Below are positions 46,515 to 49,878 of a DNA stretch of 64,000 nucleotides, piece by piece. Each line of letters begins with the position of its first letter. Within the stretch, counting starts at the first letter, position 1. The notes beneath the pieces are model-generated. The model did no database searches and was not told the DNA's origin. It worked only from the letters and a program-made list of their open reading frames with translations. The translations under genes and the position numbers were made by a program. Source of the stretch: Candidatus Bathyarchaeota archaeon (lineage in GTDB: Archaea > Thermoproteota > Bathyarchaeia > Bathyarchaeales > Bathycorpusculaceae); contig CAVYES010000004.1 of assembly GCA_963767735.1 (NCBI GenBank), forward strand, positions 512,001-576,000, read 5' to 3'.

Positions 46515-46731
46515 TGAAGCAAAAGCAAAATCAATCAAACAATAAGGCATGGTTGAAAAGCAGAAACAAAAAAAACTTTGGCGCAATATCTCCAAATAAA
46601 TGGATAATCAATGCTTGAAGAAAACAGAGACACGGAAAATTCAATTGAACAAAACTCAACACGTTAATTTTTAGTAATTTCGTTATTTGACGATAAATCC
46701 TCTGGTGCTAGTGCTCAGACCGAATTGAGAG

Positions 46732-46806
46732 TGGGCCGGACCGGATTCGGACCGGCGACCTTCTGCACGTCAAGCAGATGTCCTAACCAGGCTAGACGAC
46801 CGGCCC
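46732..46806 (-). tRNA. tRNA-Val(GAC)
   Basis: Cloverleaf GGGCCGG/CCGGCCC, anticodon arm TCTGC-TTGACGT-GCAGA; T-loop reads TCCGAAT. Confidence 0.93.
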
Positions 46807-47003: not shown

Positions 47004-48254
47004 ATGGCGACCGACGAAGTGCTTTCTTTACTTGTTGATTTCATTAACAAGAACTCTAACGTTGGTGACGCCCAATGGGACCAGAGGATGAGTCCACGGC
47101 TGCCTTTTAATCCGTACTCCAAAAGTTATGAAGAGCGGAAAATAGTTGCTCACTACTTTTTACTGGTTGCATCCATACTTGATGATGCGGTGGTAGGTTA
47201 CCCTGAAAACGCGAGAATGTTGCTTTCGTATTTCCATGAAGCTTTGGGCGACAGTTTTTTGGATATTAAAAAAGCACATATTTTTGAAGAAGAAATCGTG
47301 AAATCAGATTTTTATTATGATTTGGGTCCAAACAAAAAAGCGGCAGCCGAAATCATGGCATCCGTCAACACGTTTGTCAAAACTAATGCGGAAAAAAATT
47401 TGCTAAAATATTCTCAAAGATTTAGTAAGCCCAAGGATTTCGTTGATAACTTGGCACAAAACATCAATGCCTTTGGCGGACCCCGCGTTGATAAGGCGTG
47501 GATTTACATGCGGTGGATGGTGCGGCCTCAACCTGACCTGCACATCTATGACCACCTTTTGCCAGAAGACCTCTACGTTCCATTGACCAAAGAAAACGCC
47601 AACGTAGCAGCGAGCTTTGGGATAATAGACTCAGCTTCGCCATCGCTATGGCGAGACGAACACACCGCTGCAATTGCAAGACAAAAAATAACAGACTTTG
47701 CAAAAAAGCTCTTTCCCAAAGACCCCGCGAAGGTTGATTATCCCTTCTCCCTCTTAGGCAGATGGCTTAGGAAAAAAAAATTAAACCGGTACACGTTGAA
47801 AACTGCACTTGATTTTCTTGACCGAATGCAAAAGATCACTGGTCAGTCCCAAGCTTATTACCAAAAGATGAGCCGTTACAAAAGTGGATGGGAGAAAAAA
47901 ACCGCTCTGACTCTTTTAAGGATGCACATTGCTTTTGGTTATGAAACCATTAGTTTCCCTTTGCCGAATAATGAAATTTACACGCCCGATTTCATTTTGG
48001 AAAAAACTGTTCAGGGGAGAAAAATTGTTCTTGAACCCCATTTCGAAATGACTAAAAAGCAAGCTCGCAAATATGCATTATTCAAACGAACTTACGGTCA
48101 CCGGTTCCTCTTAATACTTCTGCTGAAAAATGATTTAATTTCTTTGTATCATCAGCGAAAAATATTGACTGACGATGTGTGCGACGATGTTTGGCCGATT
48201 GAGTTTATTCATTTGTTGGCTGAGAAAATACGAAGAGGCACCTACGGCGAATAA
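47004..48254 (+). CDS. DUF2400 (TIGR02757)-like protein fused to a T7 endonuclease I-like PD-(D/E)xK domain
   Basis: YMRWMVR...DL...VPL...DPAKVDY; C-terminal YKSGWE...F.YE...YTPDF.L...IVLEPH. Confidence 0.7.
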   Translation: MATDEVLSLLVDFINKNSNVGDAQWDQRMSPRLPFNPYSKSYEERKIVAHYFLLVASILDDAVVGYPENARMLLSYFHEALGDSFLDIKKAHIFEEEIVKSDFYYDLGPNKKAAAEIMASVNTFVKTNAEKNLLKYSQRFSKPKDFVDNLAQNINAFGGPRVDKAWIYMRWMVRPQPDLHIYDHLLPEDLYVPLTKENANVAASFGIIDSASPSLWRDEHTAAIARQKITDFAKKLFPKDPAKVDYPFSLLGRWLRKKKLNRYTLKTALDFLDRMQKITGQSQAYYQKMSRYKSGWEKKTALTLLRMHIAFGYETISFPLPNNEIYTPDFILEKTVQGRKIVLEPHFEMTKKQARKYALFKRTYGHRFLLILLLKNDLISLYHQRKILTDDVCDDVWPIEFIHLLAEKIRRGTYGE

Positions 48255-49228: not shown

Positions 49229-49380
49229 GCCAAGAAAAATGGCAGTAGTTAGTTAATTACTTTGCTTTAAAACATACTAGTTCTTCCAATTGCTGCTACA
49301 AAAGCATCTTCGTAAAAAAATACGCGCAAACATTTTATTGAGGTAAGAACAGAATTAGCCAATTGGCGCTGGGAAATCGC

Positions 49381-49495
49381 GCCGGGATAATGCTTCGACA
49401 ATTGTTGGGCATCCCGATGGCAGAGTGGTTAACGCGCGGGCCTTGAGAGCCCGTGGATCGCAAGGTCCGCATGGGTTCGAATCCCATTCCCGGCG
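49381..49495 (+). tRNA. tRNA-Ser(TGA) with a 30-nt BHB intron at position 8/9 (49389..49418)
   Basis: Acceptor GCCGGGA/TCCCGGC-G, anticodon arm CGGGC-CTTGAGA-GCCCG, long variable arm, GGTTCGAATCC; canonical BHB at the intron junctions. Confidence 0.92.
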
Positions 49496-49878
49496 CCCTT
49501 TTTTCCAATTTTTCTTTTTCAAAAAGGCTCTGGATCTTTAGTTCCCGTTTGAAAATGAAGCCATAGCTTGCTAGTAAATTGCTTTTTCAATCGATTGGTT
49601 ATCTCAAGGGCTTGATTTGGAGGGAAATTGGAGCAAAGCTTTTAAGAATTGTGTAGATAAAAGAACGTTAACAGGGAAACGATGGGCTTAAATGGTGAGA
49701 TTAAATGTTATGAGGTTCGACACTGTGAGAGGGGCACAGGAGTTTCTGTTTAAAAAGTCAGGTTACAAAGTTTTCTTTTTTGACCCTTATCTCTACGCTG
49801 ACCTCAAGAGCCCAGAAAAACACTTTGGTTTCACATTTATTTCCGATAAAACCTATAATTTAAGGATATAGAATAAGC

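Follow-up and report, generated by a model that had tools for sequence, protein, structure and literature searches.

A tRNA-Ser(UGA) gene in a Bathyarchaeota genome with a predicted bulge-helix-bulge intron between positions 8 and 9 and a conserved leader complement of its 3' end

Non-canonical introns of archaeal tRNA genes are usually viewed as self-contained bulge-helix-bulge (BHB) cassettes able to sit anywhere in the gene. A locus in the window analysed here, a stretch of 64,000 nt from the genome of a Candidatus Bathyarchaeota archaeon, raises the question of how such an intron could be spliced when its BHB borrows the acceptor strand, an arrangement in which the acceptor stem no longer keeps the exons together. 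The interval 49381-49495 very probably represents a functional gene, the only one for tRNA-Ser(UGA), with a protein-spliced intron between positions 8 and 9 and a leader strand that would act as a stand-in for the acceptor strand or as a tether. Genes of this kind carry a second conserved element, which lies outside the tRNA.

The gene lies on the + strand of the window (49381-49495) and is interrupted directly after U8 by an insert of 30 nt. The preliminary description of the locus had placed this insert at 49389-49418 in a tRNA-Ser(UGA) gene, and each of its coordinates proved correct. Exon 1 (49381-49388, +) comprises tRNA positions 1-8, GCCGGGAT, as delimited by the sequence, by intronless orthologues and by ARAGORN on the spliced product. 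GCCGGGA (49381-49387) is the exact complement of TCCCGGC (49488-49494), and U8, G9 and G73 correspond to 49388, 49419 and 49495. Past the insert, the class II tRNA continues normally with GGCAGAGTGG. Exon 2 (49419-49495, +; positions 9-73; ARAGORN, Rfam and sequence) contains the anticodon TGA (49444-49446), a long variable arm, the 3' acceptor strand (49488-49494) and G73 (49495), so that the gene has the serine anticodon, the long variable arm, the 7 bp acceptor stem and the G73 of a class II tRNA-Ser. It is followed in the sequence by a trailer, CCC, and a run of six T (together 49496-49504, +), the latter presumably an archaeal terminator. The third D-stem pair, 12:23 (49422 and 49433), is A.C in this genome and its genus and A-U, U-A or G-C in other families.

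Standard tRNA finders had been expected to truncate the gene, and they did: ARAGORN reported only 49414-49494, with a poor acceptor stem, and the Rfam tRNA model matched only at model positions 6-65 (37.1 bits). When the insert was removed by coordinate, ARAGORN called a full-length tRNA-Ser(tga) with a 7 bp acceptor stem; the sequence supplied ended at 49494, with C replacing G73, and the full-length call was unaffected. Excision at the bulges therefore restores a canonical tRNA, as judged by ARAGORN and by the intronless orthologues, and the junction that had been predicted, GCCGGGAT followed by GGCAGAG..., is the same as the uninterrupted 5' end of syntenic tRNA-Ser(UGA) genes in the same genus.

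Pairing of the 5' acceptor strand with the 3' end of the insert can produce a 3-4-3 BHB, with a central helix of 4 bp, two opposite bulges of 3 nt and flanking helices h and h'. All of the parts proposed earlier are present. The core (49383-49419, +; sequence, centroid fold and alignment) consists of a central helix CGGG/CCCG (49383-49386/49413-49416), a 5' bulge ATA (49387-49389) and a 3' bulge ATG (49417-49419); it is flanked on the same strand by an outer helix GC/GC (49381-49382/49420-49421) and an inner helix ATGCTT/GGGCAT (49390-49395/49407-49412), which contains two G.U pairs. In an alignment (A1) of 30 insert-bearing genes, which are related sequences and not independent ones, all 60 cells of the outer helix (2 bp) and all 120 of the central helix (4 bp) were paired, three of the latter by G.U. 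Eight of the nine aligned pairs of the inner helix, which has 6 bp in this gene, change on both sides. Over the same 30 genes the whole named structure was 89.1% paired, against at most 48.9% when the partners were slid by 1-3 columns, the observed covariation score was reached by none of 500 shuffles, and the bulge columns were free of gaps. On the strength of sequence, folding, alignment and the lack of the insert at this locus in same-genus genomes, the 30 nt at 49389-49418 (+) are very probably a BHB intron between U8 and G9.

The exact register of the BHB is not fixed by thermodynamic folding models alone. With the leader left out, the cloverleaf acceptor stem forms and the BHB does not; with the leader included, a helix between the leader and the 3' end forms together with a BHB-like hairpin. 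The minimum free energy (MFE) structure with the leader has a 3-4-3 form in a shifted register (central GGGA/UCCC), from which splicing would yield a product with two extra bases, and the centroid structure has the 3' bulge AUG as first reported, but a helix of 5 bp. An A7:U pair could extend the central helix to 5 bp in 27 of the 30 genes. An AT repeat at both junctions makes 6/7, 7/8 and 8/9 inseparable by the sequence of this gene, and it is relatives with 3' bulges such as TGG, TAG and AAG that permit only an 8/9 junction. At two loci of other families (L013 and L024) an insert in the same position has TGG and TAG as its 3' bulges, and there only 8/9 restores the tRNA. The register reported first (49383-49386/49413-49416) is favoured because intronless orthologues carry the junction that it predicts. 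The archaeal splicing endonuclease EndA cuts after the second base of each bulge, which fits the junction in the orthologues.

Related genomes were searched for the same intron, as had been proposed, and it was found both within the order and in other orders of the class. In a DNA search of 40 relatives, most genomes of the same genus were matched only from query position 36-38 onward, and at those loci the gene is uninterrupted and starts with GCCGGGATGGCAGAG or GCCGAGRT...; the same-genus loci L003-L012 and L014-L023 read GCCGGGAT or GCCGAGRT followed directly by GGCAGAG. The intron-bearing gene and the intronless genes of the genus are flanked by the same ORFs, and this is therefore a difference of presence and absence at one locus. 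A pattern search of the order matched 43 of 401 genomes, and reading of the matched strings placed the 8/9 insert in tRNA-Ser(UGA) in 34 of the 401, from families f1, f6, f7 and f9; the remaining matches fell by chance in coding sequence or reflected another 5' insert, in a different tRNA-Ser. Of the 88 genomes sampled in the genus, only 2 have the insert. A pattern search across the class matched 48 of 401 genomes, other orders included. Column identity was 1.0 for exon 1, 0.90 for the D arm and 0.43 for the middle of the intron.

The genome encodes the proteins that splicing of such an intron would need. There are two EndA paralogues, in the regions C2:237-482 and C4:496874-497128, each with PF01974 and PF02778, which are 28% identical; the His of the E-H-APY motif in one is replaced by Thr in the other, and by sequence the pair would be compatible with one catalytic and one structural subunit. 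A two-subunit splicing endonuclease is assigned, in the text of the review PMC4090602, to lineages rich in non-canonical introns, and the EndA pair of this genome would be consistent with that enzyme. An RtcB-type ligase is encoded (589 bits), as are the RNase P proteins Pop5 and Rpp30, side by side at C2:213161-214173. The RNase P RNA models RF00373 and RF02357 gave no match in the genome, which at 95% completeness is not evidence of absence; this RNA may be divergent or unassembled.

A conserved leader element that is absent from the preliminary description lies upstream of the gene. It is a stand-in strand at 49365-49374 (+; GGCGCTGGGA), identified by folding with the leader, by duplex energy and by comparison of loci. 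Its segment GCTGGGA (49368-49374) mimics the 5' acceptor strand and GGC (49365-49367) pairs with G73, C74 and C75; in the fold with the leader, 49365-49374 pairs with 49488-49497, including a pairing of CC (49496-49497) with the leader GG. A linker, AATCGC (49375-49380, +), which is poorly conserved and resembles the first intron bases, separates it from +1. Insert-bearing loci have such a near-copy of the 5' acceptor strand, 7-13 nt long, at 0-10 nt upstream of +1, and the bases before the copy, GGC here and commonly TGGT or TGGC, complement G73 and CC(A).

Duplex energies were calculated between 25 nt of leader and 11 nt of 3' end. The value for this gene was -22.0 kcal/mol, with a median of -18.9 kcal/mol (range -23.2 to -15.6) for insert-bearing loci (n=30) and a median of -4.5 kcal/mol (range -10.2 to +0.2) for loci without the 8/9 insert (n=25), so that the two ranges do not overlap. 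The tRNAs called by ARAGORN in the same genome (n=42) had a median of -4.2 kcal/mol and a best value of -13.5; this strongest complement among the ordinary tRNAs belongs to tRNA-Asp(GTC) at C4:437525-437602, with the leader GGCGCT. A duplex of -15 kcal/mol or stronger was found at 42 of 57 distinct insert-bearing loci, including all 33 of the same order. Across these 42 loci the stand-in positions 1'-7' were paired in 290 of 294 cells, and position -1 pairs with G73 in 36 (C-G in 15, U.G in 21). Column identity was 0.89 for the stand-in 7-mer, against 0.51 for the linker and 0.50 for the region upstream. By this sequence measure the stand-in strand is conserved as strongly as a tRNA exon.

All five further loci examined, of family f17, have a GC[CT]GGGG copy that matches their own G7:C66 acceptor pair, L223 has an A at -2 facing T74, and L071 and L072 combine a CTC trailer with AG/GAG in the leader. 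An A.C mismatch occurs in the stand-in strand at three loci. Support for the helix consists mostly of conservation and of one-sided changes compatible with G.U, with little two-sided covariation, because the 3' strand of the tRNA is invariant within the order. The helix between leader and 3' end is continuous and without bulges, and the BHB lies elsewhere, unlike the helix of a split or permuted tRNA. The idea that this helix is a second BHB, from which EndA would remove the leader, was likewise rejected on the lack of bulges. The intronless loci L003-L023 have a leader motif of their own, (A/G)TGTTGA, at 10-15 nt upstream of +1; its pairing with the 3' strand is weak and rich in G.U (-3 to -10 kcal/mol), and it may represent a stand-in strand that has decayed, or else an initiator element.

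The reading preferred here is that the leader acts as a stand-in and tether strand, which on balance seems probable by a modest degree. In the precursor, the 5' acceptor strand would pair with the last intron bases and not with the 3' acceptor strand, giving a BHB with C3-G6 paired to CCCG in the central helix, bulges A7-U8-A and A-U-G9, and G1C2 paired to G10C11 in the outer helix. Since this BHB requires the 5' acceptor strand, the precursor cannot form its acceptor stem. The two-subunit splicing endonuclease would cut after the second base of each bulge and RtcB would join U8 to G9; these cleavage and ligation steps are drawn from the sequence, the relatives and the gene content. Left to itself, the G+C-rich acceptor stem of 7 bp would be expected to out-compete the 4+2 bp of the BHB, as in the leader-free fold, and the cut exon of 8 nt would be held by only two base pairs. 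The leader strand would occupy the 3' strand, so that the intron is not displaced from the 5' strand, and would tie the leader and the 8 nt exon to the body of the tRNA from cleavage until ligation. After ligation, the adjacent true strand would displace the leader, and RNase P would remove it. In the RNA spliced in silico the leader helix is still the MFE structure, and its release would therefore need a further step.

A serious rival, though an unlikely one, is that the intron is real and the upstream copy is a neutral relic, a scar of tandem duplication or recombination that dates from the gain of the intron-bearing segment and is tolerated because RNase P removes the leader. The spacing of the promoter lends it weight. 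A promoter-like A/T box, AAACATTTTAT (49328-49338, +; recognized by its form and by comparison of loci), which we take to be BRE/TATA-like, has counterparts in 31 of 34 insert-bearing loci at 36-46 nt (median 44) upstream of the stand-in strand. At loci without the insert, a box was found in 17 of 28, at a median of 43 nt (range 41-68) upstream of +1. The copy thus lies at the distance from the box that +1 has in intronless genes, and in insert-bearing genes the box is a median of 57 nt from +1. None of the 17 intronless genes with a box has that insert-bearing spacing (16 at 41-45 nt and one at 68). A distance of 13 nt separates the stand-in strand from +1 in 18 of 31 loci. The linkers are similar to the start of the intron, and the copy and linker of L053 together equal mature positions 1-12. 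From these sequences, the copy looks like the ancestral 5' end or a 13 nt tandem duplicate. No strong leader complement was present in the 25 intronless loci measured; as intronless loci lack both that spacing and a strong complement, the intron and the copy appear to have been gained or lost together.

Direct repeats of tRNA 5' ends are also known from element integration, which adds to the case for a relic: in the text of PMC3293823, repeats of tRNA 5' fragments from integrating elements are described for the Caldiarchaeum tRNA-Thr. As in that description, the locus studied here has a copy of the tRNA 5' end upstream of the gene and on the same strand. The copy differs from the repeats described there in its small size (7-13 nt) and in its separation from the gene by 0-10 nt without an intervening element, in being conserved across families and orders, and in a complementarity that reaches G73-CCA. 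An att-type direct repeat, in which a tRNA fragment of tens of bases flanks an integrated element with a recombinase gene, is likewise not what the locus contains, with a copy of only 7-13 nt and a linker of only 0-10 nt before the gene.

Several observations argue against a neutral relic. The copy has stayed conserved across families in which the linker and the upstream region have drifted, and the complementarity runs past the duplicated part to G73, C74, C75 and A76. Position -1 alternates between C and U, and A:U or G.U variants occur at -2:74 and -3:75. Pairing is retained in four of the five kinds of change found in the 7-mer (C to U twice, A to G).

A further observation bears on both readings. 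Fifteen of the 57 insert-bearing loci have only a weak leader complement (-6.9 to -14.4 kcal/mol), as a relic would allow, and all of them belong to family f35 (genera g149, g160 and g186). An 8/9 intron can therefore exist without a strong stand-in strand. In this family of another order (L198-L213), tRNA-Ser(UGA) has three inserts, at 8/9, in the D loop and in the anticodon region. The leader pairs there with the D-loop insert instead of the 3' acceptor strand (-9 to -15 kcal/mol), through compensatory pairs (GCGGGTT:AACCCGC, GCAGGTT:AACCTGC, TGCGG:CCGCA and CAGGGGT:ACCCCTG). That the leader of this copy-free subclade pairs and covaries with another downstream segment is a point against the neutral relic, and it is consistent with a tether that has a different partner.

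It is improbable that the main role of the helix between leader and 3' end is that of a checkpoint, which would keep the CCA end and the RNase P site masked until the intron has been spliced out. The helix covers G73 and the encoded CC(A), as a mask should, and its predicted persistence after splicing would delay maturation of the ends. In f35, however, it is the D-loop insert that the leader pairs with, and the 3' end stays free, which suits tethering better. No result here separates the checkpoint from the tether, and both may hold.

Very improbable is a reading in which the upstream copy is the true 5' exon, with an intron of about 44 nt extending to G9 and the proximal GCCGGGAT being intronic. 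Mature positions 1-8 would then read GCUGGGAA, against GCCGGGAU with the proximal exon. The copy does sit where the ancestral 5' end would be relative to the promoter box, and at L050, L051, L053 and L070 it is GCCGGGAT, with the same mature RNA under both readings. However, the base after the copy is A or C at most loci, not U8, and U8 is near-universal in tRNA; the copy has U.G or A.C pairs that were never seen in intronless orthologues; and around the copy no 3-4-3 BHB with a neighbouring inner helix is possible, as against 30 of 30 aligned genes for the proximal strand.

Public RNA runs shared only small fractions of their words with the locus; four of them were examined (X1, X2, X3 and X6), and contigs were obtained only of relatives. 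X1 gave a contig of 218 nt from a close insert-bearing relative (a base left out at 49400 and T>G at 49418), which may derive from DNA. The X2 contig belongs to an intronless relative whose exon 2 is identical and whose flanks differ, and spliced reads of the gene studied here would be indistinguishable because of that identity. From X3 came a single contig of 97 nt that starts at 49418/49419 right after adaptor letters; this would fit a free 5' end of exon 2, and as a single contig it shows nothing. No joints were reported from any of the four runs, and X6 yielded no contig. A disrupted pseudogene that retains its insert could likewise give RNA runs with no sign of splicing and only truncated, low-scoring calls by standard finders, but this is hardly credible for the sole tRNA-Ser(UGA) gene found in a 95%-complete genome that encodes the splicing machinery, with invariant exons (exon 1 identity 1.0) and an insert and BHB conserved with covariation across families and orders.

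The proposed tethering leader can be set beside several known arrangements. In archaeal rRNA precursors, the processing stems formed by leader and trailer carry BHB motifs. As in these, a 5' leader pairs with the 3' end of a precursor that EndA processes; the rRNA BHB lies within the stem formed by leader and trailer, whereas the leader stem of the tRNA gene has none. According to the text of PMC4090602, split tRNA halves in Nanoarchaeum equitans and Caldivirga have a leader and a trailer that complement each other. Both there and here a flank that is not part of the tRNA pairs within the precursor and would hold the pieces for EndA and the ligase. The flanking helix of split tRNAs, as described there, is part of the BHB and joins two transcripts, whereas the leader helix proposed here would act in cis and outside the BHB, mimics an acceptor strand and would need later displacement.

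The intron itself belongs to the non-canonical BHB introns, a known class. Those described in the text of PMC4090602, from Thermoproteales, Thaumarchaeota and others and including an intron at 3/4, are likewise short, spliced by proteins and of 3-4-3 form. The present intron is like them in lying at a position other than 37/38 and in a genome with two EndA subunits, and several tRNA genes of this genome have more than one intron or introns close to an end. The review text names positions 3/4 and 20/21 up to 59/60 'etc.'; 8/9 is named neither there nor in the running text of the other papers searched. Compared with the introns named in that text, the present one differs in its position, in a BHB that consumes the 5' acceptor strand and in the conserved leader complement of the 3' end. 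The occurrence of tRNA introns in acceptor-stem regions is mentioned in the text of a 2025 paper (PMC12397907), and tRNAscan-SE 2.0, as its description states (PMC8450103), extends candidates by 60 nt to catch introns close to an end. Literature searches on leader or acceptor mimics and on Bathyarchaeota tRNA introns returned no description of a leader complement of a tRNA 3' end.

If the leader is functional, it offers a rule for locating and annotating introns close to tRNA ends in genes such as this essential one, which finders miss; a testable mechanism by which exons of 3 to 8 nt could survive splicing; and a system in which an intron is present or absent at a single syntenic locus, suited to the study of its gain and loss in a little-studied class of archaea. 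The chances are about even that the dependence is a general one, in which introns that consume the acceptor strand (8/9 in tRNA-Ser(UGA), apparently 3/4 in tRNA-Ser(CGA) and about 9/10 in tRNA-Arg(CCU)) rely on a leader stand-in or, in one subclade, on pairing with a second intron. If so, the precursor would contain a cis-acting RNA chaperone and tether, which would explain both the persistence of introns inside acceptor stems and the loss of the leader copy along with the intron.

Other loci were noted in the course of the analysis. Loci of tRNA-Ser(CGA) type (L073-L076, L044 and L045) start with a full GCCGGGG(T) copy, which is followed by ...GTTGCC, a hairpin and CAAC/CAGC-AA/AT-GGGGTGGCAGAG. 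Read by hand, they would have a BHB intron at 3/4 with an exon of 3 nt, GCC, and the first GCCGGGG as a leader stand-in; MFE folds did not reproduce this hand-drawn BHB. For the tRNA-Arg(CCU) gene at about 581908-582040 of contig C6, which is not in the window, the Rfam match is confined to model positions 10-63. Upstream of the match lies GGGCGAGT and then an insert of about 30 nt with a terminal CTCG that pairs with C4-G7. This insert resembles the 8/9 intron and would lie at about 9/10; an A6.C67 mismatch would occur in the acceptor, and GGACGGG with GGTG further upstream folds onto the 3' end, CCCGCCCGCCA.

In a tRNA with anticodon CAT (C5:383415-383560) there is an insert in the anticodon region, and the 3' acceptor strand appears to be interrupted by a second one of about 30 nt (TCC, insert, CGGCACCA), which contains TCGGCG. 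The tRNA-Leu(TAA) gene at C9:60118-60180 has a D-region insert, and a TGGT in its leader abuts +1 and complements A73-CCA. Elsewhere in the window, 46731-46806 on the minus strand is an ordinary tRNA-Val(GAC), and an ORF of 416 aa at 47004-48254 on the plus strand has DUF2400 proteins, mostly from Bathyarchaeota, as its nearest protein clusters.
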